DNA of 64,000 bases from Marine Group III euryarchaeote CG-Epi1 (GTDB lineage: Archaea > Thermoplasmatota > Poseidoniia > MGIII > CG-Epi1). Positions 31,796 through 63,345 of the stretch are shown here, piece by piece. Every line of letters starts with the position of its first letter. Within the stretch, counting starts at the first letter, position 1. The stretch spans positions 838-64,837 of the forward strand of contig MIZA01000022.1 of the NCBI GenBank assembly GCA_001875345.1. Direction: 5' to 3'. The position numbers and the translations under genes are program-made. Below the pieces are notes generated by a model. That model was not told the origin of the DNA, did not search any database, and worked only from the letters and a program-made list of their open reading frames with translations.

Positions 31796-34700
31796 ATGGC
31801 AAAGAAATCTGTGAAAAAAGAAACGGCGTCGAAAAAAAGTACGCCTAAGAAATCTCCTGCCAAAAAAAGCCCTACTGCGAAAAAAACTCAAACAAAAAAA
31901 GCGGTTGCAAAGAAAACTTCTACTAAACAAACTAAATTACAAGACAATCAAAAGAAAGGTAAATTAACAGTAAGTCAAAGAGAAAGAGACGAAATTGATG
32001 CAGTTATGGATACTTTGTGGGCTTTTGTAGGGGCTCTAAAAAATTCATGGAAAAATACGAGAGCTATTTTGTTAGCTGGTATTTTCATTGGACTAATCGG
32101 CGTAACTTTCTCTGGCTATGGTCAAGAGTTGGTTGGTGTTGAACAGTCTGGAATTTGGTACGCAATTACTGAAAATCCTGAAGATTTAGAAGCTTCTTTT
32201 GATCCTGTATTCAATAATCGACAATATCTAGAATATTCTTCTGGGGATGAAATTAGAATAGAAGGAAAATTAACTGATATTAGATACTATGGAGATATTG
32301 AAGATGGGTTATATCCTATCCCTCCCAGTGGTTTAGATCCTGCGGTTGCACCAGGGGACAGCTTCAAAATTCTACAGCCTGGGACTACTGACTCTTTATT
32401 TCCAGTACTCTCTGAAAATAATAGTGAAATGAATATTAATTTTGCCAGTGGATTGGAATTTCAAAGAGTGCATTTCAATAATACTGACTTAACCGCAGCA
32501 GTTTTCACCAACGTAAAATTTACCGATGTTTTATTTTCAGAATATTCCTTTACAGATTCTTTCTTTATAGATTGTAGTTTTGAAAGAGTTACTTTTGCAG
32601 ATGTCGATTTTAGTAAGTCTGTGATGTCGAATGTGACTTTTGATGCTGTACTATTCAACAATGTCACTATGGATTCAAATAGAATTGAAAAGAGCGTATT
32701 GGATACCTTTTTGGTTAGAAGCTCTACATTTAATTCTGTTACATTTGATAAGACTGAAATTACAGGAACTAAGTGGTCACAGTCTGCTTTAAACGACGGA
32801 ATTTTCCAAAGAAGCTCAATGGATGTAGTCATCTTTAGAGATCTGGAAGTCAATGATTTTTATCTGATAGACTCAAAAATCAATTATAATTTTGATGTTC
32901 CTCTTACTTCAACTTTTGATCATACGTTTATTGAACTTGGAGAAGCTACTGTAGTCGTAGGAGGAAATGTCGAAGATGAATACGCTGCCGGAGCTCATCT
33001 TTATTTTGGAAATGCTAAAGTAAAATTGGGTGGATTAGCTGCCGGAACTGCTCCAACATACGGCGGTTGGGAGCCTGGAAGTGTAACTGGTCAAGGTTTT
33101 CAAAAATTAAATTCAGGTAACTTATCTGTAAATTTAAATTATGAATACATTTATTCTGATTCTAAGGATATTGACATTACTTTCTGGTGGAATATTGCCT
33201 TTGATTGTATTGCGGTATTGGGTCTTGGAATTCTGATATATGCTATAGGTGGACCTAGCGCAATGCTTGGACTTTTCAAGTTTCTTTCACCATTCATAAT
33301 GACTGGCGCTTTCTTCGTTGTAATGTTTTTGAGCATGGGACAAAGAGAATTCTTAATTCTTTCTCAACTAATGCTTGTTTATTTTGTTCCACCGTTTGGT
33401 AAAGGTACTGTGGTTCCGCTTGGAATTGCAGGCGGAGTTGATCCTTGGGCTATCGCAATTTGTACTGCATTTGTCGATATTGCAGTAGGTGTTTTCCTAA
33501 CTTGGAATTTTGACTTGGCAAAGAAAATACCCTTCATTGGTAGCGGAATTAATCGAATTCAGATTAAAGGAAAAGCTATGTTGAAAGATTTACCATGGTT
33601 GGAAAGAGCTTCTTTTGTAGGTATTGTTGTATTTGTTATGTTCCCATTCCAAGGTTCAGGTGCAGTTGGAGGAACCATCTTAGGAAGAGCTATTGGTTTA
33701 TCACCAAATAGGAATTTGAGTGCTGTTGCTATTGGAGCTATAAGTGGGTCACTAATTCTATCTGCTTCTGTAGTTTATGGATTAGGTGTCTTGGCTATCT
33801 TAGCTCCTCTACAAATTGCAGTAACTGTAATGTTTATTGGACTGTGTCTTGTTATCTATTATTTGTATCAACATTGGGAAGAGATCAAGTTGGAAGATGT
33901 TTCACAAACGATTGGAGGCGTTTCACAAACTCTTGGCCTTCACAAGGAAGGACTCATCGGAGCACCAATCAATGCTAGCGTTGGGGCGCTTGGAACTGCC
34001 GGTGGAACTGTTCTAAAGGTTACTGGAGATACAAGTCGTACTGTTCTTGGAGCTGTTGGACAAACTGGTAAAAACATAACTAAAACCACCGGTGATTTCA
34101 TAGGTTCTTTAGCTGGATCTTTTGCTGATGATAAATCTGACTATGCAGATAGTACTAAACCCACTGAGTTAGACTCAGGAGTATTGGTTTCCATGGCAGA
34201 ACAAAAAACAAAGAATAGAGTTGTAGTTACTGGCGGTGCAGGATTTATTGGATCTCACCTAGTAGATCGCTTAGTAAAAAGAGATGAAGAAGTTGTAGTT
34301 TTAGATAATTTTTCTTCTGGCCAATTAGAATTCCTCGAAGAATCAATTGAAAATATTACCTTGATTGATATTGACCTACTTAATGAGGACTTTGCAGGAT
34401 ATTTAGAGGGAGCGAAAATCGTATACCATTTAGCTGCTAACCCTGAAGTTCAACTAGGAATTACTAAGCCTGAAGTCATGCAGGAACAAAATGTAGACGT
34501 TACAAAGCGCGTTTTAGAAGCTATGAAATTAGCTGGATGTGAAAATATTGTCTTTACTTCTACTTCAACAGTTTATGGAGATGCAGAGAAGATTCCAACA
34601 CCAGAAACTGCAGAACTAAAACCAATTTCTGCGTATGGAACTAGTAAACTAGATGCTGAAAAATTAATCGAAAAGTATTGTAAAGAGAATAACTTCCGAG

Positions 34701-35161
34701 GAGTTTCTTACCGATTTGCAAATTGTGTAGGTCCTCGTAGTAACCATGGAGTTACCTTTGACTTTGTGAATAAATTAAGGAAAGATAACAATAATTTAGA
34801 AATTTTAGGAGATGGAAAGCAAAAGAAATCTTATTTCCATGTTGAAGATTGTATTTCAGGTATGCTAAATATGGCTCCAGGTGAACTCTGTGAAAAAGGG
34901 GAAATGGCTGCCCTTAACGTAGGCTCGAAAGATGCAATTGATGTTATTACTTTAGCTGATCAAGTTTGTAAAGCAATGAAATTAGATGATGTAGAATATT
35001 CCTTTACTGGTGGAGTTGATGGAGGAAGAGGCTGGAAAGGAGATGTTAAATTTATGCGATTGGATATTAAGGCATTGATGAAACATGGATGGACTCCTCA
35101 ATATACCAGTCGAAGAGCCATTAAGGAAACTGCAACCTGGCTTCACAAAAACTCTGAATAA
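31796..35161 (+). CDS. Multidomain membrane protein: Lys-rich tail, pentapeptide-repeat domain, polytopic membrane domain, C-terminal NAD-dependent epimerase/dehydratase
   Basis: Single 1121-aa ORF. aa 1-55 are KKSxxKK repeats, followed by a TM segment. aa 222-361 are 28 consecutive pentapeptide repeats. aa ~465-700 form a multi-TM domain resembling the 'small multidrug export' family (PLGIAGGVDPW..., FPFQGSGAVGGTILGRAIGL). A Gly-rich linker follows. aa 800-1121 are an SDR epimerase (VVVTGGAGFIGSHLVDRL, YGTSKLDAE). Confidence 0.7.
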   Translation: MAKKSVKKETASKKSTPKKSPAKKSPTAKKTQTKKAVAKKTSTKQTKLQDNQKKGKLTVSQRERDEIDAVMDTLWAFVGALKNSWKNTRAILLAGIFIGLIGVTFSGYGQELVGVEQSGIWYAITENPEDLEASFDPVFNNRQYLEYSSGDEIRIEGKLTDIRYYGDIEDGLYPIPPSGLDPAVAPGDSFKILQPGTTDSLFPVLSENNSEMNINFASGLEFQRVHFNNTDLTAAVFTNVKFTDVLFSEYSFTDSFFIDCSFERVTFADVDFSKSVMSNVTFDAVLFNNVTMDSNRIEKSVLDTFLVRSSTFNSVTFDKTEITGTKWSQSALNDGIFQRSSMDVVIFRDLEVNDFYLIDSKINYNFDVPLTSTFDHTFIELGEATVVVGGNVEDEYAAGAHLYFGNAKVKLGGLAAGTAPTYGGWEPGSVTGQGFQKLNSGNLSVNLNYEYIYSDSKDIDITFWWNIAFDCIAVLGLGILIYAIGGPSAMLGLFKFLSPFIMTGAFFVVMFLSMGQREFLILSQLMLVYFVPPFGKGTVVPLGIAGGVDPWAIAICTAFVDIAVGVFLTWNFDLAKKIPFIGSGINRIQIKGKAMLKDLPWLERASFVGIVVFVMFPFQGSGAVGGTILGRAIGLSPNRNLSAVAIGAISGSLILSASVVYGLGVLAILAPLQIAVTVMFIGLCLVIYYLYQHWEEIKLEDVSQTIGGVSQTLGLHKEGLIGAPINASVGALGTAGGTVLKVTGDTSRTVLGAVGQTGKNITKTTGDFIGSLAGSFADDKSDYADSTKPTELDSGVLVSMAEQKTKNRVVVTGGAGFIGSHLVDRLVKRDEEVVVLDNFSSGQLEFLEESIENITLIDIDLLNEDFAGYLEGAKIVYHLAANPEVQLGITKPEVMQEQNVDVTKRVLEAMKLAGCENIVFTSTSTVYGDAEKIPTPETAELKPISAYGTSKLDAEKLIEKYCKENNFRGVSYRFANCVGPRSNHGVTFDFVNKLRKDNNNLEILGDGKQKKSYFHVEDCISGMLNMAPGELCEKGEMAALNVGSKDAIDVITLADQVCKAMKLDDVEYSFTGGVDGGRGWKGDVKFMRLDIKALMKHGWTPQYTSRRAIKETATWLHKNSE

Positions 35162-37898: not shown

Positions 37899-39380
37899 TT
37901 AAACTAAAGGAATTAAGTCAATATCAGATTCGTACAAGCTAGGGCCTGCTTCAAGGTAATAGACCGAACCCAATCTATCTCTTGAATTTGATGAAGAAGT
38001 ATCCTCTCCAGAGGCGCAAGTTCCTGTACATCCATCTGCAAATGCAATGTATACTCTTCCTTCTAAGTCAATGTGTAGGTCGTTAAAGTCTAGCAGATTA
38101 CGGTTGGAACCGCCTTCGTTAGAGCGACAGTCTCCACTATTTAGACAAATACTTCCGACTTGAACTGGATCTGTAGTGAGTCTTTGAGTGTGAAAAATAG
38201 GATTTTCATCAAGAGCATTCAGGCTGTATGTAACGTACAAGTGGTGACTGACATTTGTAGTAGCATAATGTGCATTACCATTCCAGGGATTTCCATCTAT
38301 ATCTGGCTGACCTAGTGCACTAGCGTTTTCACTTCCAAGATAGGCTATAGCTATTCTCCCAGGATCTCCAGCTGAAGTGTGTGGGAAAGTAGCAGAAATC
38401 ACTTCAATTGGACTGACTCTGATGCTTGTTTGGTCCCATGTATTGCCTGAATCTATACTTCTGGACATGTAGACTCCCTGATCTCCGCCTACCCATACAT
38501 TGTAAGCATTAGATTCGGTATCTGTGGCTATTTCGCCATTCTTACGAGGATTTGGAGTTCCTACGTCTTGACCCATAGTCCTTTCTTCCCAAGTAAGGCC
38601 ATTATCTTTAGAAAAAATAATTGCAGGAGTTGCTACTCTAGGTGGAAGATAAACAGTACCGTCAGGTGCACTTGTGATTGCTCCATGCAAGCCTCCATTT
38701 GCTGTTGCTATTCCAACTAAGTTACCTCCTACTTCGAAAGAAGCACCTCCATCATAACTAGTGTAACATGAAATGTAAGCTAACTTATTGTAACAAAAGT
38801 AAACTGCAGTTTCATAAAAACTTGAGGATGCTCCACCTCCAATTCCATACCCTGCATTTGTCCAAGGTCCTGAACCTAGTTTGATATGGTCATTAACCGG
38901 GGCTCCAGAATCGTGAGGGTTAGCTTCCCAACTTTCACCGTCATTATCGGTCCATCCGATCCATGTTGTCCAAAGTCCCATCATATGGATATTGAAAACT
39001 CGGTCAGTAATTGGATCTACCCAACCGTAAGGATCATTTGTGAAAAATGCTTGAGAAGCATCTGCCGTATTTTCCCAAGTAAGGCCACCATCACATGATC
39101 TCATTGGTTTTTCAAATGCAATAAAGAAAATACAGCCGCTAGAAGTAACGCCCAAACTAGGTTCTGCGCCTTGCTCCCCTACATTACTGAAGTAAAATTG
39201 CATTTCTAATGGTGCTACATCTGTATAGTTACCAGTTGAATCTGTAACAAAAAAACCGTCAGGAAGTCCTGCTTCTACGATGATAGGAGAATTATCTGAA
39301 GAATCTTCATTTAAACAGCCTGACAGCGATGTTGCCATCACAAAAATGACTGCGAAAAATGAGTTCCACTCTTTGCCCAT
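37899..39380 (-). CDS. BNR/Asp-box repeat (sialidase-like beta-propeller) lipoprotein
   Basis: 493 aa. N-terminal signal with lipobox-like LSGC. Asp-boxes SCDGGLTWEN, TDNDGESWEA, SYDGGASFEV, SKDNGLTWEE, SIDSGNTWDQ. Confidence 0.75.
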   Translation of the reverse strand: MGKEWNSFFAVIFVMATSLSGCLNEDSSDNSPIIVEAGLPDGFFVTDSTGNYTDVAPLEMQFYFSNVGEQGAEPSLGVTSSGCIFFIAFEKPMRSCDGGLTWENTADASQAFFTNDPYGWVDPITDRVFNIHMMGLWTTWIGWTDNDGESWEANPHDSGAPVNDHIKLGSGPWTNAGYGIGGGASSSFYETAVYFCYNKLAYISCYTSYDGGASFEVGGNLVGIATANGGLHGAITSAPDGTVYLPPRVATPAIIFSKDNGLTWEERTMGQDVGTPNPRKNGEIATDTESNAYNVWVGGDQGVYMSRSIDSGNTWDQTSIRVSPIEVISATFPHTSAGDPGRIAIAYLGSENASALGQPDIDGNPWNGNAHYATTNVSHHLYVTYSLNALDENPIFHTQRLTTDPVQVGSICLNSGDCRSNEGGSNRNLLDFNDLHIDLEGRVYIAFADGCTGTCASGEDTSSSNSRDRLGSVYYLEAGPSLYESDIDLIPLV

Positions 39381-50482: not shown

Positions 50483-52582
50483 ATGGATATTGCAGTAATA
50501 CTTTCTTTCATATTTTTTATGTCTATTTTTGCAGGGGTTGGACTTGCTTCTGTTAGAGTAAAAAAAGATACAACTGATGATTATTTGGTTGCAGGTAGAG
50601 GCATGAGTCCTCCTCTCGCTGCATTATCTGCAGTTAGTACTTGGAATTCTGGATATATGTTCATTGGTTTCATCGGGTTTACCTATACTCTAGGATATCC
50701 TGTTGCATTTTTGGCTTTCATGTCAACTATCGGACAGTTTGTTGCATGGATGTGGTTGTACAAGTTTATACAGAAAGAAGGAAACGAAAGAGGTGTTCGC
50801 TCACTATCCTCGCTGGTTGCAGAAAAAGCAGGAGCGCCTGAAGCTAAACTTGCAGGAGTATTATCTGTTTTATTCTTGAGTATTTACGCTGCAGCTCAGC
50901 TTACCTCTGGGGGAAAAGCCCTCTTCGTAATGATGGGGTGGCCTGAGGTTATTGGAATCTTAATCGGATTTGTGTTAGTTGTAGCTTACTGTTATGCTGG
51001 AGGAATTAGGGCTTCAATTTGGACAGATGCTGCACAATCATGTGTTATGCTTGTTGGCTCAACGATATTGTGCTGGATTAGTATCCAGGAAGTAGGTGGT
51101 TTTTCTGGACTTAAGGATGGTCTAAATCAACAAGATCCAGCTTTGACTAATTTCTTACCTCCAGATTTAATGTTCGGACTAACTCTTTGGATTGCTGCTT
51201 TCTTTCTAGGCGGATTGAGTGTTGCTGGACAGCCTCAGGTAGTTTCAAGAGTTATGACTTTGGGAGATGATAAAGATCGAAGAGAAGCTATGATTTGGTT
51301 TTTCGTTTGGCAAACACCTTTCATTGTTCTAATGTTGATTATCGGCCTTGCTAGTCGAGTACTATTTACTGAGAGTGATTTTGATGCTGAACTTGGCTTA
51401 CCTATGATGGCTATGGAAACCATGCCTGCAATAGGAGTTGGAATGATTTTAGCGTCAATTTTTGCAGCTACGATGTCAACTGCTGATAGTCAGGTTTTAG
51501 CTTGTACGGCCGCAATTACTGACGACATTAAACCTGAGTGGAATCAAGATCATAAAACAACAAAGCAGGTTACGATTGCTGTAGCTGCTTTTGCTACTCT
51601 GATTTCAATTGGTGGTTTGTATGTTCCGGGTGGAGATTCTGTTTTTCAACTAGTCGTATTTGCAGTATATGGCCTAGGAGGCGTTTTTGTTCCTCTTCTT
51701 ATCATTCGATGGGCAGGTTACAAACCCGACACTACTCATTCTGTATCGATGATGGTTGCTGCATTTAGTGGCGTTTTCATTTGGACTGTTTTAGGACTAG
51801 ATGGAGCCGACGGAGTATTTCCTTCTGTTCCAGGAATGGGTGCTGCATTTGCTACACACTTTACATTAAATTACATTAGAAGTCCAAAAATTGCTCCTCT
51901 GGGACGATTCAAATTGCCTAAAAAAAGCCAGTATGGTGCTGTTGCTGCAGCAATTTTGATTCCATTTGGAGCTGCCGAAGCCGTATATCTAGTTGGAGCG
52001 CCAGAATCAACTGAAGGTAGTGGTGGTGTTGGAAATTATTCTATTTCTGGAGATATCTCTTATGAAATGCTAGGAAATAATACTGAATATGTTAACGACG
52101 GTGAAACTATCCTAATAGATCTAAATACCAATAATATCCAATGGACTTCTGATAATCGAAATGTTGTTGGAGTTAGAGTTTTACTTACATACAGTGAGGA
52201 TGAAACTAGTAACGGGGCTGGATGTGCTGCTCCTGGTGCTTCCCAACCTGATCCAGATACAATTACTGGAACTGTAACTCATGATGATTTTAATGGAACT
52301 GAGAGTGGACAAAATCAGGGACAAGGTAGTTCGTCTCATGAAATTTTAGTTGAATGGTACAATTCTTCCTTGTATTTTTCAGGCAACGCTACAAACATGT
52401 CTGAATCTGAAATTAAAAATGAGCTCGATTCAATGGGTGCCGGATTGGGTGCTTATTTTCTAGAAATAAATGTGGAAGCGGAAAGTGGAAATGCTCTTGG
52501 ATGTAACCATACTGACAATGGTGAAGAAGTCGAATATTTAGTTGAAGTCGTGCTCCTTGACTATGAAATTACGCCTGCTTAA
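50483..52582 (+). CDS. Sodium:solute symporter (SSS) family transporter with ~200-aa C-terminal extracytoplasmic domain
   Basis: 699 aa. DYLVAGRGMSPPLAALSAVSTWNSGYMFIG and a 13-14 TM core typical of the SSF family. After the last TM (AAAILIPFGAAEAVYLVG) comes a soluble Asn/Ser/Thr-rich domain with many NxS/T sequons. Confidence 0.75.
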   Translation: MDIAVILSFIFFMSIFAGVGLASVRVKKDTTDDYLVAGRGMSPPLAALSAVSTWNSGYMFIGFIGFTYTLGYPVAFLAFMSTIGQFVAWMWLYKFIQKEGNERGVRSLSSLVAEKAGAPEAKLAGVLSVLFLSIYAAAQLTSGGKALFVMMGWPEVIGILIGFVLVVAYCYAGGIRASIWTDAAQSCVMLVGSTILCWISIQEVGGFSGLKDGLNQQDPALTNFLPPDLMFGLTLWIAAFFLGGLSVAGQPQVVSRVMTLGDDKDRREAMIWFFVWQTPFIVLMLIIGLASRVLFTESDFDAELGLPMMAMETMPAIGVGMILASIFAATMSTADSQVLACTAAITDDIKPEWNQDHKTTKQVTIAVAAFATLISIGGLYVPGGDSVFQLVVFAVYGLGGVFVPLLIIRWAGYKPDTTHSVSMMVAAFSGVFIWTVLGLDGADGVFPSVPGMGAAFATHFTLNYIRSPKIAPLGRFKLPKKSQYGAVAAAILIPFGAAEAVYLVGAPESTEGSGGVGNYSISGDISYEMLGNNTEYVNDGETILIDLNTNNIQWTSDNRNVVGVRVLLTYSEDETSNGAGCAAPGASQPDPDTITGTVTHDDFNGTESGQNQGQGSSSHEILVEWYNSSLYFSGNATNMSESEIKNELDSMGAGLGAYFLEINVEAESGNALGCNHTDNGEEVEYLVEVVLLDYEITPA

Positions 52583-52635
52583 TCGCTAGGCTAAGTATCT
52601 TATAAGGCCCCAGCTTGAAACTGTAGGGATAATTA

Positions 52636-53061
52636 ATGGCAAAGGAAGAATATGAAACTCCGCTTATTGATGTTTACAACCGAACTCACATGGATGCACT
52701 CCATGAGGACGGAAGCTGGTATCACCGATATTTACCAGAGGGCGTTTTCCTAGAAGACTTAGGACAAATTATAGAAGAGGAATTGATCAAGGCCTATAAC
52801 GAAGTAGAAAGAGAGGCTGATGAATTCTTTGAGAAACAAATTAGAGAACGCTTTGAGAAGATATTTGCACAAGCAAATCCAAAAGATCTTCGTGGACTGT
52901 TACCAAAGAAACCGCCTGTTAACTGGGCAGAATTACCTGTAGAAATTCAACGCGAAATGCAAATTATGCATGATAACGCAGATAGTGAAGGCATTACAGA
53001 GAGAACATTGAAAAAGAGGGTTCGACAATACCTTGTTGACCAATTTATCATAGACGAGTGA
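52636..53061 (+). CDS. Hypothetical charged helical protein, first gene of the KaiC-like operon
   Basis: 141 aa, E/K/R-rich, no recognised motif. Ends 5 nt before the next gene. Confidence 0.55.
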   Translation: MAKEEYETPLIDVYNRTHMDALHEDGSWYHRYLPEGVFLEDLGQIIEEELIKAYNEVEREADEFFEKQIRERFEKIFAQANPKDLRGLLPKKPPVNWAELPVEIQREMQIMHDNADSEGITERTLKKRVRQYLVDQFIIDE

Positions 53062-53066
53062 TTTAA

Positions 53067-53879
53067 ATGGCTAAAAAAGACGTAACAAAACCAATCAGCC
53101 TAGACCCCCGCGGAGGACGTCCTAGAGAAAAATGTGTGACGTACATCGAGGGAATTGACCGTATTTTAAACGGTGGACTTCCAATTGGAAATATTGTATT
53201 ATTGGCCGGAACTGTGGGTTCAGGAAAAACTACTTTGGCTATGGAATATTTGATTAACGGAGCTAAAAATGGAGAAACATGCTGTTACATCTCGGTCACT
53301 GAGCCTTCGTCAAAGATGTTATCAAACTTGCAGACCTATGGATTCTTCGACGATGCTTTGGTTAAAGATGGTCGATTAAATATTTTTGATTTAACAGTTA
53401 TTAACGATCGATTAGGTGTAGAAAGGCTTGATGGTACTTATTCATCAAAAGATATGGAAGCTTTACTAGGTGCATTCGAAGATATCGTAGATGAACTTGG
53501 TGTTACAAGACTAGTCATTGATTCTATTACTGCAATTTGTTATCAATTACCTGACAAGGGAAGTATTCGTAATTTCATATTTAGATTAAGTCAGTTTTTG
53601 AGTACTTTCGGATGTACTACTATGCTAATTTCAGAAACGGTGGTTGATTCCAATACTCAAACATATTCTATTTTTGGAGTGGAAGAAGCTGTTGCAGATG
53701 GTGTAATTCTTATGGGTAACATCATACGCCAAGGTGATTTGTTGAGAAGTTTACAAGTTGTAAAAATGCGAGGGACTAAACACTCTCGTGCCAGACATCT
53801 TATTGAGTTAACTCCAGTTGGCTTAGCTGTTGTTCCTCTTCTCAAGTGGGGTCAAGACGGAGGACAGGCGTTTACATGA
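53067..53879 (+). CDS. KaiC/RadA-like single-domain ATPase (intact Walker A)
   Basis: 270 aa. IEGIDRILNGGLPIGNIVLLAGTVGSGKTTLAMEYL, Walker B-like TRLVIDS, TMLISE, and C-terminal QVVKMRGTKHS, all typical of KaiC-family domains. Confidence 0.8.
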   Translation: MAKKDVTKPISLDPRGGRPREKCVTYIEGIDRILNGGLPIGNIVLLAGTVGSGKTTLAMEYLINGAKNGETCCYISVTEPSSKMLSNLQTYGFFDDALVKDGRLNIFDLTVINDRLGVERLDGTYSSKDMEALLGAFEDIVDELGVTRLVIDSITAICYQLPDKGSIRNFIFRLSQFLSTFGCTTMLISETVVDSNTQTYSIFGVEEAVADGVILMGNIIRQGDLLRSLQVVKMRGTKHSRARHLIELTPVGLAVVPLLKWGQDGGQAFT

Positions 53880-54433
53880 GCATCAAAGATACTGCTCAAT
53901 CTATTATCAAAAGTATCAACGGTGGGGACACATTAACTAGTATTAGTTTAAGCGCTGAAAATTTTCATGAAGACACGGTAAAGTTAGTTTCAGTATTGGT
54001 TGGTAAAAAATTAGGAGGAATCTACGTTACTACTTCTAGACCTTCCTCACATATTAGAGCTGAACTAGAAGAAGCTGGAGCTGATTTATCTGACTTATAT
54101 TTTGTTGATCTTGTATCTATGACTGTCGGTGGAAACACCTCTGATGCTCGAACTTTATTCATTGAATCCCCAACTATGTTAGAATCTATTCTTTTGAATA
54201 TCACTCTTTTAGAAAGGCGTCTAAAATCAAAAAGGCGTTTTGTAATGTTTGACTCTGTAAATGGACTCAGTATTTATTCCGAACCAAAAGTTTTGAGAGA
54301 ATTTATTAACGTTTTAGGAAATTCTATGAGGATTAAAGAAATTTACAGTATGTTAATGACTGTTAAAGAACAAACTGACGAGGAATTATCGTCTGCATTA
54401 AATTTATTATCTGATAAAATGATAGGAGAATAA
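53876..54433 (+). CDS. KaiC-like pseudo-ATPase lacking a P-loop
   Basis: 185 aa from the ATG that overlaps the upstream TGA (ATGA). It aligns with its neighbour (GGIYVTTSRPSSHIRAELEEAG vs CCYISVTEPSSKMLSNLQTYG; RRFVMFDSVNGL vs TRLVIDSITAI) but has no GxxxxGK[ST]. Confidence 0.6.
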   Translation: MSIKDTAQSIIKSINGGDTLTSISLSAENFHEDTVKLVSVLVGKKLGGIYVTTSRPSSHIRAELEEAGADLSDLYFVDLVSMTVGGNTSDARTLFIESPTMLESILLNITLLERRLKSKRRFVMFDSVNGLSIYSEPKVLREFINVLGNSMRIKEIYSMLMTVKEQTDEELSSALNLLSDKMIGE

Positions 54434-54435
54434 GT

Positions 54436-55200
54436 ATGGCTGAAAAAATAGTTTCAACTGGAATCGAGCGTTTAGACGAGGCATTAATCAATGGAGAAGG
54501 TGTCGTATTGGGTAGTTCTATCTTGATAGAAGGTAGTTCAGGTTCTGGAAAAGAGTTATTATCGAAACAATTTGCTTCGGCAGGCGTTGGATCTGAAACT
54601 GTTGTTTATTTTTCAACTGATGAAACATCAGATGAGCTTATCGATGTCTTTGAACAATACAGGTGGGCTACTGACTTACGTATTGTCAATGTAGGGACCC
54701 AATACTTTGAAAAGGTTCTATCTCGTGAACTACAAGCTTCACGTTTCAAACAAGAAGGTCTTTCTGTCTCTGAACTTAGAAATTTAGGATCTTATGGTTC
54801 AACCTCTGATCAAATTAATTTCGTTGCAGATATGACCTATGAAATTTCAAAATTAAAATCACCTTTCCGTGTTGTTATTGACTCTTTAGATTTCTTTTTA
54901 CAATACTACAACCCTCTCGAGGTATTGTCTGCTGTAAGAACAATTAAGGAATATGCACAGGCGAATGGTGGAACTGTAATGTATACCATTTCTGAAGGTG
55001 CCCATGAACATAAAATTCACAGCCAGCTTGAAGCTATTTGTGACTTAGTTATTCAACTAGAAGTCGGAAGAATGGCTGCAGAGTTTGAAAACCGTTTAAT
55101 TATCAAAAAGATACGAAATCATCCTGAGAAAGCTGCTGTTATGATTTATGCTGTAACAGATAGTGGACTAACCCCAGAAATGATTACACGTGTTGCTTGA
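54436..55200 (+). CDS. KaiC/RecA-like protein with degenerate Walker A (GSSGSGKE)
   Basis: 254 aa. TGIERLDEALINGEGVVLGSSILIEGSSGSGKELLSKQF, FRVVIDSLD, and C-terminal IIKKIRNHP in place of the KMRG motif. Starts 2 nt after the previous gene. Confidence 0.7.
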   Translation: MAEKIVSTGIERLDEALINGEGVVLGSSILIEGSSGSGKELLSKQFASAGVGSETVVYFSTDETSDELIDVFEQYRWATDLRIVNVGTQYFEKVLSRELQASRFKQEGLSVSELRNLGSYGSTSDQINFVADMTYEISKLKSPFRVVIDSLDFFLQYYNPLEVLSAVRTIKEYAQANGGTVMYTISEGAHEHKIHSQLEAICDLVIQLEVGRMAAEFENRLIIKKIRNHPEKAAVMIYAVTDSGLTPEMITRVA

Positions 55201-55216: not shown

Positions 55217-56101
55217 TTGAACGACTCCCAAATTACGGAATCACAGAAGAAAGGGACTGAAGTATTCTACAGATTGCCCAAATGGCTCTCAATTTCTGTA
55301 AAACTTCTAAATCTAATTTCGACAAAATTAACTACAAGGTTCCTTTGGAACGTATTCACAAAACCGCTAGACTTTAGAATGCAAGATGTTGAAAATAAGT
55401 TTTACAAGGAACATACCTCTATCGATTTTTTCTCAGAAACTGCCAATAAAACTGTTAAAATTTATAATGTAAAAGGAAAAGGCTCTAAGATTCTGTTTGT
55501 CCACGGATGGAGTAGTAGAGCTAGTAAATTTCATAAGATCATTAGTGAGTTTAAATCTAAGAATTTTGATATTACAGCAGTTGACATGCCTGCTCATGGC
55601 CAATCTTTGTCAAAAAGAAGCCACTTACCTGAATTTTGTGACGTTGTTTACGACCTATCAAAGAATAATGGGCCGTATGATACTATAATTGGTCATTCAA
55701 TAGGGGCGGTTGCCGCACTAAATGCTGTAAAAATGGGTCAAAATTTTAGAAATATTGTTCTTATTAGCCCAGGAGCGTACAAAATTGAACCCATTTTTAG
55801 AAATTTTGTCTCTCTTTTTGGATTATCGGAGGACTTTTATGTCAAAAGTATGTTCGATTCCTTTGAAGCTAAGGATGGTCGAAAACCTCCAAACTATGGG
55901 CCAGATAAATTCGCTACAGAAATCGAATCAAGATGCCTTATCATTCATTCTGAAGACGACGCGCAAGCTAACCCCAAAGTTGCCGAAAAAATTCATGAAG
56001 ATATTAAAAATAGTAAATTAATGATGGCTACAAATTTGGGTCATATGAGAACGCTAACTGATGATAAAGTCATTGAAACTATAGAAGAGTTTATTTCATG
56101 A
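55217..56101 (+). CDS. Alpha/beta-fold hydrolase
   Basis: 294 aa, TTG start. HGWSSRASKF, nucleophile elbow GHSIGA, C-terminal GHMRTL (His). Confidence 0.75.
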   Translation: MNDSQITESQKKGTEVFYRLPKWLSISVKLLNLISTKLTTRFLWNVFTKPLDFRMQDVENKFYKEHTSIDFFSETANKTVKIYNVKGKGSKILFVHGWSSRASKFHKIISEFKSKNFDITAVDMPAHGQSLSKRSHLPEFCDVVYDLSKNNGPYDTIIGHSIGAVAALNAVKMGQNFRNIVLISPGAYKIEPIFRNFVSLFGLSEDFYVKSMFDSFEAKDGRKPPNYGPDKFATEIESRCLIIHSEDDAQANPKVAEKIHEDIKNSKLMMATNLGHMRTLTDDKVIETIEEFIS

Positions 56102-57408
56102 TGAAAATAATTCTATCGTTAATTACTGTTTTAACTCTTGCAATGTCTGGTTGTACCGGGCCCGGGAATTTTTTTGATGAAGATAAACCTGTAGAAGAGC
56201 CATATGTATTTGATTTGACTTTGGAGGACATGTGGAATGACATTCCGATAAATCAAACGTCTACTTCAGACATACTAAATTGGACATATGAATTTAGTAA
56301 AAGTCCTCGGGTAACGAATTTAACAGAAATAGGCTATAGTATGAACGGTCAGCCGTTACTACTCGTAGAATTTGGCGATTATGATCCTAACATTCCTACC
56401 GTTTATTTTGTAGCTGCCCAGCACGGTAACGAACCTGCGTCGGTAGATTCAGCATATTTACTTGCTAGACATTTTGCTAGAGGAGTTCCAGAAGAAGTGG
56501 ATCCTATTCTAGAAAAAATCAATCTGGCCGTATTTGTTATGGTAAATCCAGACGGTAGAGATGCTGGTTCACGAGGAAATGCAAACGGCACTGACTTGAA
56601 TCGAGATCATATGAAACTATTGGAACCTGAAGGGATTATTATGCAAAAAGCATTTCAAAAAATTCACCCCTCTGTGACTGTAGATATGCATGAATTTGGA
56701 GGCGCAGGAACAATAATTTTTCAAGTTGCAGCTCCTCAAAACCCTACAACTCATCCGGACGTGTTAGCAGCTTCATATGTTTTAGAAACTGACGTTATTG
56801 AAGCTGTCAATGAAGAATGGGGGTTTGGGAGTGTTACCAATTATCCGCCAACTACTAGTTCTCAAGACTCAAGTATTCATCGAAACCATTTTGCAGTCCA
56901 TGGGTCTGTAAGTTTACTATTTGAATCTGCCGTTTCCGAAGAATATTCTGAGAGAGTAAGGCTTCAGAGTTGGGCTGCAATTGCAGTTATAGACGAAGTG
57001 GTGGATGATCCTGGATATTATCTAGATGCAAGACAGTCTTCAGACGAAGAAGGCCAAGAGGGTAATGATATTGTACATGCTTATTTGTTTGAATGTAATG
57101 ACCCTGCAACTAAAGAAACTCTTCGAATTTTAAAAGATCACGGATTCAAAGTTGGCTACAAATCTGGTGATGAAAGTGTAACTTCCATACATTATGAAAC
57201 ATTTCTACCAATGACAAATTTTCCAAATGGAACTGCGTTAGTTCCGATGGATCAAATTGGATGGAGAATGATCAGTGAGCTAATGGAATATACTTCAACT
57301 AAAGATCAGCATTACACTAATTCTCCTAAAGATAGAGGCCAAGATGCGTGGAGGGCGCTGGAATCTGTCAATTATGAGATTGATAATGATGTATGTAAAA
57401 TTGAATAG
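56098..57408 (+). CDS. M14-family zinc carboxypeptidase, lipoprotein-type signal
   Basis: 436 aa. Signal with LAMSGC. QHGNEPAS (HxxE zinc site), VNPDGRD, DLNRDH, DMHEFG. Confidence 0.8.
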   Translation: MMKIILSLITVLTLAMSGCTGPGNFFDEDKPVEEPYVFDLTLEDMWNDIPINQTSTSDILNWTYEFSKSPRVTNLTEIGYSMNGQPLLLVEFGDYDPNIPTVYFVAAQHGNEPASVDSAYLLARHFARGVPEEVDPILEKINLAVFVMVNPDGRDAGSRGNANGTDLNRDHMKLLEPEGIIMQKAFQKIHPSVTVDMHEFGGAGTIIFQVAAPQNPTTHPDVLAASYVLETDVIEAVNEEWGFGSVTNYPPTTSSQDSSIHRNHFAVHGSVSLLFESAVSEEYSERVRLQSWAAIAVIDEVVDDPGYYLDARQSSDEEGQEGNDIVHAYLFECNDPATKETLRILKDHGFKVGYKSGDESVTSIHYETFLPMTNFPNGTALVPMDQIGWRMISELMEYTSTKDQHYTNSPKDRGQDAWRALESVNYEIDNDVCKIE

Positions 57409-57852: not shown

Positions 57853-58560
57853 ATGGTTTTACCTCCTAAAGATCACCCAAGATACAAATCGCTTCTAGCT
57901 CGTGAAAAGTTAGTTGACGCTTCCGAATTTGTAGCTAAACAAGGATTAATCGCTCACGGCAGAGGAGAAGCTTTTGACTATTTGCTGGGTGAACAAACTT
58001 GTTTACCGGCATTAAGTGCCATTAAAGCTGCATCTTCTGCTTTGATTGAAGCTAAAAATCCGGTTATTTCTGTAAACGGAAATGTTGTCGCATTAGCTGC
58101 AAGGGAAGTGGCGAGACTTTCCGAAATAAGTGGAGCAAAAGTCGAAGTTAACTTGTTTCATAGAACTCCAGAGAGAGTCGCTGGACTGACCAAAATGATG
58201 AAAAAAGTGGGAATTGATGCTCTTGGTGTAAATGCAGATGATAAAATTCCTGGATTAAGTTCAGAAAGGGCCAAATGTTGCTCTGACGGAATTGGTTCTG
58301 CAGACGTTGTCCTCGTTCCATTAGAGGACGGAGATCGCTGTGAAGCATTAGTGAAAATGGGGAAAAAAGTGATCACCATAGATTTGAATCCTCTATCAAG
58401 AACGGCCCAAACGGCTCACATTACTATTGTCGATGAATTAACTCGATGTTTGCCTTTACTTTCTGATTTTGTTAAAGAAAAAAACGGTTTAGATTCTTTC
58501 AATAACAAACAGTGCCTTACAGATGTTCTAAACTATATGGCTGAGAGAATAAGTTCATGA
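57853..58560 (+). CDS. Archaeal 4-phosphopantoate--beta-alanine ligase (phosphopantothenate synthetase, COG1701-like)
   Basis: 235 aa. [16 protein letters not shown]...[19 protein letters not shown] matches my recollection of the archaeal PPS family signature. Needs confirmation by HMM search. Confidence 0.7.
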
Positions 58561-59534
58561 GTGTTCTGAATATTTTATTTGTTGGAAGTGATGAAGTTGC
58601 GCGTTCAATTGCAAAAAAATCTGACTCTAGAGATGTAGACAATTATATTTACAAAGATTTGAAAGAAGGAGGGTTATTTTCAACAATTTCAATATTAAGG
58701 CCAAATAATTATCCTGATAAGCCTAAGCCATTCTTTACCTCCCTTACTGTTTCAGATTTTGGAATAATTGAAATTAACAAAGTTGACGGTGTTTTTGGTG
58801 AAGTTATAGTTTCAATGGCTTCTGCTGGAATTAAAGAAGGTCTTGTCATTCTGAATGCTTCAGAAGGAGAATGGGTCGATGATTCTCAAGTTAAAGCCTT
58901 GTTACAACAGGCTGGACTTTCTAACTGGGAATTTATTGAAAATGATGGCATCCTGATAAGGGAAAAGCTAATTGAAGTTCTGAATCAAATTAAACCAAAT
59001 GAAGATGAAGGTTTTGTGGTGGCAGTTGATCAGGCCTTTACTGTGAAAGGTGTTGGACTAGTTGCTATCGGCCATGTACAATCTGGAAAAGTCAATAAAC
59101 ATGATGAATTGATTCTGGCCGGCTCAGAAGGCAATGCGATTGCTCGCTCTTTGCAAGTAATGGACTTAGACGTTGAGGTGGCAAACGTAGGTGATAGAGT
59201 TGGTTTAGCAATGAGAACTGCTGGACCATTTAGAGAAGATTTGTTGGGTAAAGGATCAATTTTAGCAGATTCCAATGAAAGATTTACTGTCGAATCAAAA
59301 TCCAAATTTAAATTAGATAAAGCTGCATTTCAAAAAAATGATTTGGCTAAAGGCGATGTTATACATCTTTGTTGTGATTTGCAATTCGTTGTCGGTAGAA
59401 TCTCTGAAGTTAGTGATTTTATTCATATTGATTGGGATTTTCCCATAGTATTGAATAAGACATCTAAGAGAAATCCTCTAATTGTACAACTAGAAGCCAA
59501 TCCTAGAATTATGGGTTTTGCTAAATTCAATTAG
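58557..59534 (+). CDS. EF-Tu/SelB-like protein with degenerate G domain
   Basis: 325 aa. Domain-II beta-barrel signature [32 protein letters not shown]...[10 protein letters not shown]. The N-terminal domain has [16 protein letters not shown] where the GxxxxGK[ST] P-loop should be. ATGA overlap with the PPS gene. Confidence 0.7.
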
Positions 59535-61164: not shown

Positions 61165-63345
61165 ATGTATCAAAAAACAACGTTTGCTATATTGGTTGCA
61201 TTGTGCTTCTTAGGAGCTCAAGCATCTAATGCGGTTGAAGAAGGACCTACTTTCTCTACAGGAGACACATGGGCATTTGGTCAAGAAATTGATCTTATGG
61301 AAGAAGTAAACTCTGAAATACAAGAGCTCGAAAACACGATTACACAAGAGATTATCGAGAGTGATAATTTTACTCAAATTAGAAATTGGACCGGATTAGG
61401 CTTAGATTCTTTTGAACTTAACAACGAAGCAGTATTAGGATTTTTCTATACTGGGGAAATAGTTGATGATTTTGACAACATGATCCATATGCAAACCGAA
61501 CAATCATTGTATTCACACACAGTGGTTGGAACTAAATTCACAAGCATGTTACCACCTGCAGGTACACACGATTTAAAAATTAGAGCATATTGTGCTGATG
61601 AAGACTGGAATGATGATACCGAAGAGTGTGGAGAAGATGGCGACGCTGGTCAATTTGAGTTGCTAGATAATAACACAGGCGAACCAATAGTAATGGAAGA
61701 AGTCAATACGGAATTGAGCGGTGGCATGCATTACATTGCTAAAATCACTCAAGACACTTGGTGGACGCAAGATACACATGAATTAGTAAAAACGCAAATT
61801 ACAGTTGCGCTTGGTGCTTCTGCAGATTTAACACTTAGAAATGTTCCTAATCTGACCTATGAAGGTGAAAGTATTTTGACAGCAATTTCAGGCCCTCAGT
61901 TTGAATGTGATGACGGTCAAACCATTGCATTCGAAGACGCAAATAACGGTTGGGAAGATTGTGAAGATGGAAGTGACGAACCACGAGATGACGACGGCGA
62001 CGGGTCTACTGATCAGAGATTTGAATGCGATAATGGAGATACATATCCACTCGATTATGTAAATGACGGAGAATGGCACTGTGAAAACGGTGAAGATGAA
62101 GGAGAGGGAGGAGTATCTCCTTGTTCTGACTGGGAAGAAAACGAAGAAGAGAAAGAAGCCATTTGTTACGAAACAATTAATGTTCTTTACGAAACAGCAG
62201 TAGTATCTATGGATGCAGAATTAAGCATAAACTTACTATTTGACTTCGGAGATAACCCAATGAACGCCATGAACCTTCCTTTGGAAGAAAATAAGTATTG
62301 GGAAGGCGAACTAGACAGGTTAACAATCAGCGGAGATTTAGGTGGAAAGATTGATATCGCAAAGCCAGAGATGTCCATATGTCCGGATTTAGACTGTGAT
62401 CAGTTACCAGAGATGCAGGAATTATATTCAGGAATAACAGATGCACTTCAAGAACTTCATGATAATGAAACATTTAGTATCACTGTTGACAGAAACGATG
62501 ACGGCCTTCCAGACGTAATTACAGAGTGGAATGATATGTTCCCAATGTACATTCCAGAAACATGGATGGACGAAGTATTCCAAGAAATTGCAGACCAAGC
62601 ATTCTGTGATGACCAAGAATCTGCAGAGGAAGGAGAAGAGTGTGACGAGACCGCAGAAGAAGAATATGAAAAATTAAATCTAAGAATTGAAAACAACAGA
62701 TTTGCCTTTGGACCATACAACTTACACGATATTGAAGACTTCTCACCAATACCTTATGCATTTGAAACTGGAGAAAAAGAAAGCATTCAGTCTAGTACTG
62801 GAGAATCTTATGAGGGTTACCAAGTGTTCCCAACGGATAGATGTTCAGAAAACAATCCAGACAGAAATGAAGATGACTGTAATGAAGAAGATGAAGAGGA
62901 CGACGGACGTGATGACGATGAAGATAATGATGACGACAATGATGACGACGACATAATAATCATAGACGACGGACAGGCCAGATCAAGTCACGATGACGAT
63001 GAGCATGGTGATGAAGACCATGATGAAGAAGACTCTGAAGGACCATTCGACGACTCTGAGATTATCTGGTTCCACGATGCAGAGACTGGACATCCGGCAT
63101 ACATCAACATGGACATGCCAAACTTACGTGAAGATGGTTACACAATTGAGATGGAGCCAATATCACATACAGTTGCAGTAGAGAAAGTTGAAGACAATGC
63201 AGATCCAGAAAACCCTGAGAAAACAGAATTGATTGACTTTGGAACTACTGAAGTAACAGACGAAGCCTCAGATGAATTGCCAGGATTCGGTATTCTTGCA
63301 GCTGGCGCATCTTTACTATTCGTAAGTCGCAGATTCAGGAATTAG
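61165..63345 (+). CDS. Highly acidic surface protein with two LDL-receptor-class-A-like Ca-binding modules and PGF-CTERM signal
   Basis: 726 aa with a signal peptide. FECDDGQTIAFEDANNGWEDCEDGSDE and FECDNGDTYPLDYVNDGEWHCENGEDE. A long Asp/Glu tract (EEDEEDDGRDDDEDNDDDNDDDD). C-terminal LPGFGILAAGASLLFVSRRFRN. Confidence 0.75.
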   Translation: MYQKTTFAILVALCFLGAQASNAVEEGPTFSTGDTWAFGQEIDLMEEVNSEIQELENTITQEIIESDNFTQIRNWTGLGLDSFELNNEAVLGFFYTGEIVDDFDNMIHMQTEQSLYSHTVVGTKFTSMLPPAGTHDLKIRAYCADEDWNDDTEECGEDGDAGQFELLDNNTGEPIVMEEVNTELSGGMHYIAKITQDTWWTQDTHELVKTQITVALGASADLTLRNVPNLTYEGESILTAISGPQFECDDGQTIAFEDANNGWEDCEDGSDEPRDDDGDGSTDQRFECDNGDTYPLDYVNDGEWHCENGEDEGEGGVSPCSDWEENEEEKEAICYETINVLYETAVVSMDAELSINLLFDFGDNPMNAMNLPLEENKYWEGELDRLTISGDLGGKIDIAKPEMSICPDLDCDQLPEMQELYSGITDALQELHDNETFSITVDRNDDGLPDVITEWNDMFPMYIPETWMDEVFQEIADQAFCDDQESAEEGEECDETAEEEYEKLNLRIENNRFAFGPYNLHDIEDFSPIPYAFETGEKESIQSSTGESYEGYQVFPTDRCSENNPDRNEDDCNEEDEEDDGRDDDEDNDDDNDDDDIIIIDDGQARSSHDDDEHGDEDHDEEDSEGPFDDSEIIWFHDAETGHPAYINMDMPNLREDGYTIEMEPISHTVAVEKVEDNADPENPEKTELIDFGTTEVTDEASDELPGFGILAAGASLLFVSRRFRN

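Follow-up and report, generated by a model that had tools for sequence, protein, structure and literature searches.

The four co-directional genes g1 to g4 (52636–55200, + strand; Table 1) appear to form a transcription unit specific to Marine Group III (MGIII) archaea of the class Poseidoniia, which is conserved as a block, is under purifying selection and encodes a KaiC-family ATPase module. The window, that is, the whole stretch of DNA analysed, is 64,000 nucleotides long, and the organisms of MGIII are uncultured. The successive gaps of 5, −4 and 2 nt on one strand, reported in the preliminary description, agreed with the ORF coordinates. In the case of g3, the start is the ATG that shares ATGA with the g2 stop codon, and the GTG start listed at 53846 is unnecessary.

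Table 1. Positions of the four genes and of the element preceding them in the window.
Feature	Position	Strand	Description
g1	52636-53061	+	141 aa; acidic, predicted to be mostly helical; unnamed Thermoplasmatota-restricted family
g2	53067-53879	+	270 aa; single-domain KaiC-type ATPase; all catalytic motifs
g3	53876-54433	+	185 aa; pared-down KaiC-like domain without P-loop
g4	54436-55200	+	254 aa; full-length KaiC homologue, degenerate P-loop
Promoter-like element GGCTAAGTATCTTATAAGG	52589-52607	+	TATA-like TTATAA at 52600-52605

Scanning genomes with the g1 profile yielded 39 species-level loci, all from MGIII or from loosely labelled Poseidoniia MAGs. The check for conservation as a unit, which the preliminary description had proposed, gave a uniform result, as every locus of sufficient length had the order g1-g2-g3-g4 with the same tight or overlapping spacing. 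The g2/g3 gap was −4 in 36 of the 38 tabulated loci (window included), the g3/g4 gap was −8 to +2 nt, and the g1/g2 gap was −4 to 58 nt, with 2–6 nt in most MGIII loci. Identity to the window genes was 46–99% for g1, 76–100% for g2, 50–98% for g3 and 65–99% for g4. Where synonymous sites were unsaturated, dN/dS was 0.03–0.14 for all four genes. Since orthologues were present in 39 loci at these dN/dS values, g1 to g4 are real genes and not chance ORFs. The flanks varied, with an SSF symporter inserted upstream in one clade only and with different genes downstream. Within one order, adjacency may in part be due to gene order inherited from a common ancestor, and the OPT transporter upstream of the block likewise keeps its place in most loci; the two most distant loci, L043 and L044, have no OPT gene nearby. 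A metagenome scan with the g3 protein of L043 gave no matches.

Upstream of g1, the main MGIII clades share a conserved GGCTAA-N5-6-(C)TTATAAG or TATATAG motif, which is kept whether the SSF symporter or the OPT transporter precedes the block. In the window, the TATA-like hexamer lies approximately 30–36 nt 5' of the g1 ATG, with transcription predicted to start near 52627–52630, and L043 and L044 have only a TATA-like TTTATAG or TAAATAG at the corresponding side of g1. The conserved motif suggests that this promoter-like element serves the whole block.

As judged from its motifs, g2 is the intact ATPase of the module. Its translation contains GTVGSGKTT, RLVIDS, LISE and KMRGTKHS, and at motif level nothing is missing from it: Walker A (GxxxxGK[ST]) and Walker B are intact, and the catalytic Glu and the Lys/Arg strand are present. 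In the Pfam profile search, g2 matched KaiC (PF06745) with 188.4 bits (1.6e-55). The alignment of 34 distinct orthologues had 168 invariant columns out of 277, and the N-terminal tail LDPRGGRPR[ED]K was also invariant. Because it has the full catalytic motif set, g2 is the sole candidate catalytic subunit of the module.

In g4, the P-loop reads GSSGSGKE in the window and follows the pattern G[ST]xG[SA]G[KI]E in the family. The Walker A lysine is replaced by Ile in the g4 of L043, a substitution which indicates that at least one lineage can do without this lysine. The family retains STDETS, VV[IV]DS and KK[IV]RNHPEK and keeps Walker B, the acidic pair and the K-x-R strand; it also carries a conserved insert of ~35 aa with the invariant QASRFKQEGLSV. 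The preliminary description had correctly given GSSGSGKE and the absence of the letters KMRG, but its claim that the motif had been lost did not stand, because KKIRNHPEK of g4 aligned with VKMRGTKHS of g2 (hhalign, 95.7% probability, 216 columns) and the Lys/Arg strand is thus kept. In KaiC, this strand is the arginine finger. The g4 alignment had 128 of 256 columns invariant, and identity between g2 and g4 was 32%, over 81 aa only. The Pfam matches of g4 were PF06745 (84.3 bits), DUF7504 (42.9 bits, above its cut-off) and the Elp4 family PAXNEB, and its matches among PDB sequences were KaiC, FlaH, PH0284 and SSO2452. A split three-domain KaiC, with g2 as CI and g4 as CII, was considered and dropped; the g4 N-terminus matched either CI or CII, depending on the KaiC chain, so the idea has no basis.

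In the case of g3, the PF06745 match (30.6 bits, cut-off 26.6) spans profile positions 50–170 only, so the P-loop part is missing, as the preliminary description had held in stating that the gene has no Walker A. The catalytic Glu (TSRP instead) and the C-terminal K-x-R strand are also lacking, and a Walker-B-like FVMFDS is retained. Orthologues gave borderline PF06745 scores (26.9 and 25.7 bits, and none at E <= 0.01 for L043), and a precomputed PF06745 match is on record for many of them. The g3 alignment had 50 of 205 columns invariant, with a dN/dS of 0.05–0.14. Similarity of g3 to g2 or g4 was not significant in BLASTP or hhalign, a profile search of PDB sequences with g3 was uninformative, the AF2 single-chain model was poor (pLDDT 64), and its Foldseek matches were not significant. 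The kinship of g3 to KaiC is therefore marginal, barely recognisable from these comparisons, and g2, g3 and g4 appear to be ancient, very distant paralogues. A Ser pair lies close to the g3 C-terminus and is not conserved among orthologues; its candidacy as a phosphosite was dropped on that account. Taken together, the count of one catalytically equipped subunit and two degenerate ones, already proposed along with the complete KaiC-type domain of g2, is correct at motif level.

The remaining gene, g1, had no Pfam or NCBIfam match in profile searches. The protein has 51 charged residues out of 141 and a pI of 4.8, and three features mark its family: the invariant peptide MAKEEYETPLID.YNR.H at the N-terminus, a long helix in the centre and, at the C-terminus, a basic helical hairpin that ends in TERTLKKRVRQYL. 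The AF2 model (pLDDT 76) has residues 1–25 disordered and helices at 44–80, 102–118 and 122–135. Among 1.84 billion representatives, an exhaustive HMMER search detected no more than 27 proteins. Long forms of the family from this search (P0244 and similar) gave no match in the word-indexed database. Foldseek against PDB and BFVD returned nothing under E=0.39, and thus no significant solved fold. A Fis-type helix-turn-helix was also considered for g1, and it was kept as a lead only, as the family profile matched Fis with no better than E=0.035–0.3. When the C-terminal module alone was used as a profile, EF-Ts was preferred (E=0.035) and the Fis likeness was not reproduced; HTH_8 was absent among the Pfam families listed for 26 family members at E <= 10.

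The reading we prefer, with a probability of roughly 0.5, is that the block encodes a heteromeric KaiC-type complex with a regulatory role. The overlapping or nearly abutting stop and start codons would couple translation of the four genes, and the products would assemble into the complex. In it, g2 would supply ATP binding and hydrolysis, g4 would be a non-catalytic partner still able to give trans-acting interface residues, and g3 would be a purely structural or regulatory subunit. The likeliest partner or output of the complex would be g1, which may dock via its invariant disordered N-terminal peptide and act via its basic C-terminal helical hairpin. Overall, the complex would most likely regulate, either as a switch driven by ATP or as a hub for signals, in line with proposals for archaeal KaiC-like ATPases in general. 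As no sensor or output domain is recognisable, the word regulatory is used by analogy only.

The distant homologues of g1 in other Thermoplasmata (22–33% identity) are coupled to TBP with a gap of 1–2 nt, or follow a PAC2-family gene with a gap of 7–20 nt in an L44e-S27e-eIF2alpha-Nop10 cluster. Translation and RNA-modification genes (eIF2alpha, Nop10, TruD) are among their neighbours, and no KaiC gene was found within ~5–7 kb of them. A metagenome scan with the profile of these homologues gave no confirmed locus. As the distant homologues adjoin TBP or a PAC2-family gene and never KaiC, the g1 family as a whole is not one of KaiC adaptors, and the link between g1 and KaiC is one of adjacency within one order only. 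The dedicated adaptor role given to g1 in the preliminary description was weakened accordingly. It is therefore possible, if clearly less probable than a role in the complex, that g1 is functionally separate, being a small information-processing protein that shares a promoter with the KaiC genes in MGIII; this would be compatible with our view of g2 to g4. Against this, the conserved promoter-like element precedes g1 and not g2, and g1 lies close upstream of g2. Since the g1–g2 gap is 2–6 nt in most MGIII loci, there is no room for a separate g2 promoter.

A second alternative, a little less probable than a separate g1, concerns the complex itself. The four genes might be co-transcribed and yield no mixed ring, with g2 forming a homo-hexamer and with g3 and g4 acting apart from it, whether as regulators, as substrates or as independent homo-oligomers that are possibly stacked. 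The known archaeal single-domain KaiC homologues are homo-hexamers, as exemplified by PH0186 (PMC5520375), the three paralogues are very divergent, and g2 is far more conserved than g3 and g4, as would be expected if g2 worked alone. However, g2, g3 and g4 are strictly co-retained, the g2/g3 ATGA overlap and the close g3/g4 junction recur through the loci, and g4 keeps an interface-type K-x-R strand while its own P-loop decays, all of which argue against this alternative. At the opposite extreme, the complex might be an obligate asymmetric particle with one catalytic and two pseudo-ATPase subunit types, an archaeal counterpart of the Elp456 and Rad51-paralogue rings, in which g1 would pass on the ATP or phosphorylation state. 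We consider this stronger form doubtful.

Assignment to an established family was evaluated by Pfam and NCBIfam profile searches, in which g2 stayed under the cut-off of every NCBIfam KaiC, ArlH and RadB model. As g2 has a single domain and scored 157 against 408 and 116.8 against 546 bits with the circadian KaiC models (NF006799/TIGR02655), it does not belong to circadian KaiC. The ArlH equivalog of NCBIfam (cut-off 215 bits) gave 60.5 bits for g4 and 35.4 bits for g2, and GvpD_P-loop (PF07088, cut-off 24 bits) gave 15.9 bits for g2 and 14.5 bits for g4. The RadB model TIGR02237 (cut-off 172.4 bits) matched only the N-terminal 47 residues of g2, with 27.3 bits. Thus, the earlier statement that ArlH, RadB and GvpD do not explain the genes was supported, none of g1 to g4 reaching the curated cut-offs. 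The Pfam scan of the window covered ORFs of at least 110 aa outside the ribosomal-protein block (~14.2–25.8 kb). Among these ORFs there were no archaellum, gas-vesicle or recombination genes, in accordance with the preliminary description, and neither a further KaiC paralogue nor a member of the KaiA or KaiB families. A defence system was considered with PADLOC, in which g2 matched mad8 weakly (5e-7) and g1, g3 and g4 matched nothing; as the g2 match shows no more than a shared P-loop, the defence reading was rejected.

These searches also bear on the idea that g2 to g4 are a recombination mediator of the RadA/Rad51-paralogue type (cf. Rad55-Rad57, RAD51 paralogue complexes and archaeal aRadC), with one active and two inactive RecA-fold subunits that g1 tethers to DNA. 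Orthologues carry the public name 'KaiC/GvpD/RAD55 family RecA-like ATPase', g2 has weak RecA, RadA and RadB matches, a RAD51-paralogue complex is among the weak Foldseek matches of g3 (E=0.23), and the hairpin of g1 is basic. However, the KaiC score of g2 far exceeds that for RecA (24.5 bits), its RadB score is far from the cut-off, the Foldseek matches of g3 are not significant, and there are no repair or recombination genes among the scanned ORFs of the window or in the related loci; we therefore regard a recombination mediator as improbable.

An analogue of the eukaryotic Elp4/5/6 hetero-hexamer, handling tRNA or other RNA with g1 as an RNA-binding partner, is less probable still. Three different RecA-fold subunits, two of them without working P-loops, do mimic Elp456, g4 passes the whole-protein cut-off of PAXNEB (PF05625; 35.5 against 28 bits, and 41 bits for the g4 of L043), and g1 homologues elsewhere lie amid the translation and RNA-modification genes named above. 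However, the PAXNEB match covers profile positions 16–80 of 366 only, that is, 65 N-terminal residues in a region common to all KaiC/RecA proteins. With no match along the rest of the profile, no Elp4/5/6 chain among the PDB sequence matches of g4 and no Elp3 gene seen in the window, g4 was not assigned to Elp4. Regulation of the adjacent peptide/solute transporters (OPT, SSF) is equally hard to credit, for although OPT lies directly 5' in all loci but L043 and L044, these two lack it nearby, the block has its own promoter-like element, and in one clade an inserted SSF gene separates OPT from g1 with the block undisturbed.

KaiC-like ATPases have been proposed as the main archaeal signalling hubs, yet partners and outputs are known for hardly any of them. 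As a compact and co-retained module, the block is a test case for how an active-type KaiC subunit works with decayed paralogues, and also for the role of the unnamed g1 family, with its links to TBP and PAC2-family genes elsewhere. If the asymmetric particle were real, planktonic MGIII would have a switch or timer built on KaiC that acts directly on the basal machinery of transcription or translation. If the module proved to be a common homo-hexameric KaiC plus accessory proteins, no more would be gained than the annotation of three hypothetical-protein families.

Comparison with known systems places the module as follows. In the case of cyanobacterial KaiC, the alignment of g2 with the CI half of the S. 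elongatus protein runs from end to end (108.8 bits, against 39.3 bits for CII), and g2 has both Walker motifs (A and B), the K-x-R strand and one of the two catalytic Glu. Unlike that protein, g2 is one domain of 270 aa against ~519, without the CII kinase half and with the additional invariant N-terminal LDPRGGRPR tail. In the Elp4/5/6 and Rad51 paralogue complexes, RecA-fold paralogues that have diverged from one another are encoded or assembled together, and not all of them have working P-loops. This design principle would be common to them and to g2, g3 and g4, although there is no specific sequence relationship. ArlH (FlaH) is likewise a single-domain, KaiC-like, ATP-binding protein that works with protein partners, and g4 matches S. 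acidocaldarius FlaH (4yds) with 7e-7; however, both g2 and g4 are below the cut-off of the ArlH models, and there are no arlI, arlJ or archaellin genes among the scanned ORFs of the window.

The archaeal single-domain KaiC-like proteins PH0284, PH0186 and SSO2452 have the same size and fold class as g2, which matches PH0284 with 5.5e-29 and PH0186 with 5.4e-28. In contrast, g2 is below the cut-off of each of the TIGR03877/03880/03881 groups (131 against 307, 131 against 249 and 104 against 248 bits), and no association with a g1-type gene and two degenerate paralogues is described for any of these proteins. Autophosphorylation is known for KaiC3 of Thermococcus litoralis and Pyrococcus horikoshii, and archaeal genomes usually carry several KaiC copies (PMC5520375). 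A literature search found no paper linking KaiC with MGII or MGIII. KaiC has been proposed as an archaeal signalling hub (PMC5847659, PMC10983859), and inactivated KaiC domains ('iKaiC', e.g. MEDS) are given as regulatory parts of archaeal signalling in the passages of PMC5847659 that cite Makarova et al. 2017. Similar to iKaiC, g3 and g4 combine the KaiC fold with motifs that have decayed at the nucleotide site, and g4 passes the DUF7504 cut-off; in the MEDS profile search, g2 gave a weak match only (E=0.089, 13.1 against 29.8 bits) and g3 and g4 gave none. The difference is that g3 and g4 stand alone, free of receiver or sensor fusion, with genes tightly spaced or overlapping with an active-type KaiC gene. 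The preliminary description had not recognised the arrangement as a described system. Since multiple KaiC copies (PMC5520375) and, in those passages of PMC5847659, inactivated KaiC domains are already described, the block is new as a four-gene variant but not as a kind. It is a real, uncharacterised, lineage-restricted variant, and it probably represents this lineage's own form of the regulatory modules based on KaiC that are common in archaea.

The window (G+C approximately 37%) derives from a planktonic archaeon of Marine Group III (MGIII), class Poseidoniia, and its close homologues carry the label 'Marine Group III euryarchaeote' or 'Candidatus Poseidoniia archaeon'. The genes g1 to g4 are separated by 5, -4, and 2 nt; these gaps, reported in the preliminary description, were obtained again from the ORF coordinates, and every motif quoted there was found in the translations. 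Scanning one genome per GTDB species with the g1 profile yielded 39 distinct loci, all of which belong to MGIII or to MAGs with the loose labels Poseidoniia, Methanobacteriota, or Thermoplasmata. The proposed block proved to be conserved as a unit, the order g1, g2, g3, g4 being found in every sufficiently long locus among the 39. The g1/g2 spacing was mostly 2–6 nt (range -4 to 58), g2/g3 was -4 in 36 of the 38 loci tabulated, and g3/g4 ranged from -8 to +2 nt. Across the four genes, dN/dS was 0.03–0.14 where synonymous sites were unsaturated, with g3 the highest, and all four are maintained genes.

Features of the window and of homologous loci (positions refer to the window unless a locus is named)
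Feature	Position	Strand	Length	Identity to window	Remark
g1–g4 block	52636-55200	+			
g1	52636-53061	+	141 aa	46-99%	ORF
g2	53067-53879	+	270 aa	76-100%	ORF
g2 N-terminal tail	53067-53140				residues 1-25
g3	53876-54433	+	185 aa	50-98%	ORF, counted from ATG overlapping g2 stop as ATGA
g4	54436-55200	+	254 aa	65-99%	ORF
g4 insert	54700-54830		~35 aa		residues ~90-130
SSF symporter	50483-52582		699 aa		SSF at residues 34-407
Hydrolase and M14 carboxypeptidase	55217-57408				
Multidomain ORF	31796-35161		1121 aa		
ORF	61165-63345		726 aa		no Pfam match (E <= 1e-5)
ORF	37899-39380	-	493 aa		no Pfam match (E <= 1e-5)
ORF	58557-59534		325 aa		no Pfam match (E <= 1e-5)
ORF	2788-3858	-	356 aa		no Pfam match (E <= 1e-5)
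Fic-domain gene	L043:4401-5462				upstream of block
Archaeal type IV pilin-like gene	L043:8486-9145				downstream of block
Distant g1-family example	L046:7001-7624				
Distant g1-family example	L048:7001-7429				

The block is constant and its flanks are variable. Downstream genes vary by clade. Only the window's clade and a few others have a sodium:solute symporter (SSF) gene separating g1 from the OPT transporter upstream; approximately 290 aa at the C-terminus of this symporter form an extension with no Pfam match. In the window's clade, g4 is followed by an alpha/beta hydrolase gene (TTG start 16 nt past g4) and an M14 carboxypeptidase gene overlapping it by 4 nt; both may be co-transcribed with the block in this clade only and are not conserved partners. 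In L043, the most divergent locus, the OPT transporter and the hydrolase are both missing, and the block is flanked by a Fic-domain gene and a pilin-like gene. The reading that the block regulates transporters has less support. A GGCTAA-N5-6-TTATAAG/TATATAG element occurs within 50 nt upstream of g1 in the main clades, and TATA-like TTTATAG or TAAATAG precedes g1 in L043 and L044, the most distant block loci. Since the element is conserved irrespective of the upstream gene, the transcription unit most likely begins at g1 with a short leader. One locus deposited as 'Candidatus Neomarinimicrobiota bacterium' (L009, PCCQ01000039.1) carries the OPT-SSF-g1-g4 region at 96–100% protein identity to the window and is therefore probably an archaeal contig mis-binned in a bacterial MAG.

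The product of g2 is a complete single-domain KaiC (PF06745, 188 bits) that matches the CI half of Synechococcus KaiC (108.8 bits) far above CII (39.3 bits). Set against that protein, Walker A (GTVGSGKT), Walker B (RLVIDS), KMRGTKH, and one of the two catalytic Glu residues (TE, where KaiC has EE) are all present. Its invariant N-terminal LDPRGGRPR[ED]K tail, not found in KaiC, is a candidate interaction surface. The g4 product (PF06745, 84 bits) is homologous to g2 along its entire length (hhalign probability 95.7%, 216 columns). In its P-loop, G[ST]xG[SA]G[KI]E, the orthologues displayed have Glu in place of the Ser/Thr that follows Lys, and the most distant of them, L043, also has Ile instead of Lys. 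STDETS, VV[IV]DS, and KK[IV]RNHPEK are retained, the last aligning to VKMRGTKHS of g2. In KaiC and RecA rings, the Lys/Arg strand completes the ATP site of the neighbour. The earlier statement that g4 lacks KMRG is therefore literally correct but functionally misleading, because the aligned Lys/Arg strand is kept. A conserved insert containing the invariant QASRFKQEGLSV is a further candidate interaction surface.

The weakest case of KaiC family assignment is g3, which scored 30.6 bits against PF06745 (cut-off 26.6) over profile positions 50–170 only; orthologues scored 26.9 and 25.7 bits, and that of L043 gave no match (E <= 0.01). No significant BLASTP or hhalign similarity to g2 or g4 was obtained, although the non-significant hhalign alignment was still collinear (GIYVTTSRPSS/CYISVTEPSS, FVMFDS/LVIDS). 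The P-loop is missing, as had been claimed, as is the catalytic Glu, and the protein stops short of the K-x-R strand. Its AF2 model was poor (pLDDT 64), and a Foldseek search with it was uninformative.

No Pfam or NCBIfam match was found for g1. In its AF2 model (pLDDT 76), residues 1–25 are disordered, followed by a long helix (44–80) and a helical hairpin (102–118 and 122–135). The 12 residues at the very N-terminus, MAKEEYETPLID, do not vary among the aligned MGIII homologues and are kept in the L043 protein (46–48% identical), which suggests a docking peptide. Because profile searches reached only chance level (Fis, E=0.035-0.3; EF-Ts, E=0.035), g1 belongs to an unnamed family. Only 27 proteins were recovered when 1.84 billion cluster representatives were searched exhaustively with HMMER, the distant ones (22–33% identity) being from other Thermoplasmata, where the gene has two fixed contexts. 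A 207-aa subfamily follows a TBP gene after 1–2 nt, and a ~142-aa subfamily closes an L44e-S27e-eIF2alpha-Nop10-PAC2 cluster, 7–20 nt behind the PAC2-family gene; in one contig group the latter lies upstream of RpoL and TruD. The family may act as a factor associated with transcription or translation. In long forms of 300–500 aa, two to four copies of the C-terminal module (YLPQKP...KKTIRKQIRKYL) are separated by linkers that are rich in Lys and resemble histone H1, which hints at nucleic-acid binding. No KaiC gene was found within about 5–7 kb of the distant members at any locus (L046–L057), and the g1–KaiC link is confined to MGIII. The reading that g1 is unrelated to the KaiC genes has less support.

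In keeping with the earlier view that ArlH, RadB, and GvpD do not explain the block, g1–g4 all fell under the curated cut-offs for these families; those for circadian KaiC and the TIGR0387x archaeal KaiC groups were likewise reached by none. A Rad51-paralogue-like mediator and an Elp456-like RNA-handling ring have less support as readings of the block. The Pfam scan covered the other window ORFs of at least 110 aa outside most of the ribosomal-protein block (~14.2–25.8 kb). Among these, the stated lack of archaellum, gas-vesicle, and recombination genes was borne out, and neither KaiA nor KaiB was found; the ORFs encode transporters, glycosyltransferases, ribosomal proteins L3 and L4, peptidases, and CoA-related genes. 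One ORF is an unusual fusion of pentapeptide repeats with a small-multidrug-export-like membrane domain and, at its C-terminus, an NAD-dependent epimerase/dehydratase. No additional KaiC paralogue was detected in the window by tBLASTn, and PADLOC assigned no defence system.

The block comprises one subunit that carries a full set of catalytic motifs, together with two paralogues that have decayed, strictly co-retained in overlapping or abutting reading frames under purifying selection, with its own promoter-like element. The four products would assemble as a heteromeric KaiC-type complex in which g2 would perform ATP hydrolysis, g4 would be a non-catalytic partner still able to supply the K-x-R strand across the interface, g3 would be a structural or regulatory subunit, and g1 a partner or output. 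That g2–g4 form no mixed ring has less support. The most economical interpretation is a regulatory role, since archaeal KaiC-like ATPases are proposed as signalling hubs, a picture to which inactivated KaiC domains also belong (PMC5847659; PMC10983859), and since archaea usually have several KaiC copies, with single-domain homologues that assemble as hexamers and undergo autophosphorylation (PMC5520375). The four-gene arrangement and the g1 family are covered by none of the libraries searched, and the literature search found no paper linking KaiC with MGII or MGIII. The components themselves are of a known kind, namely, archaeal KaiC and inactivated KaiC domains.
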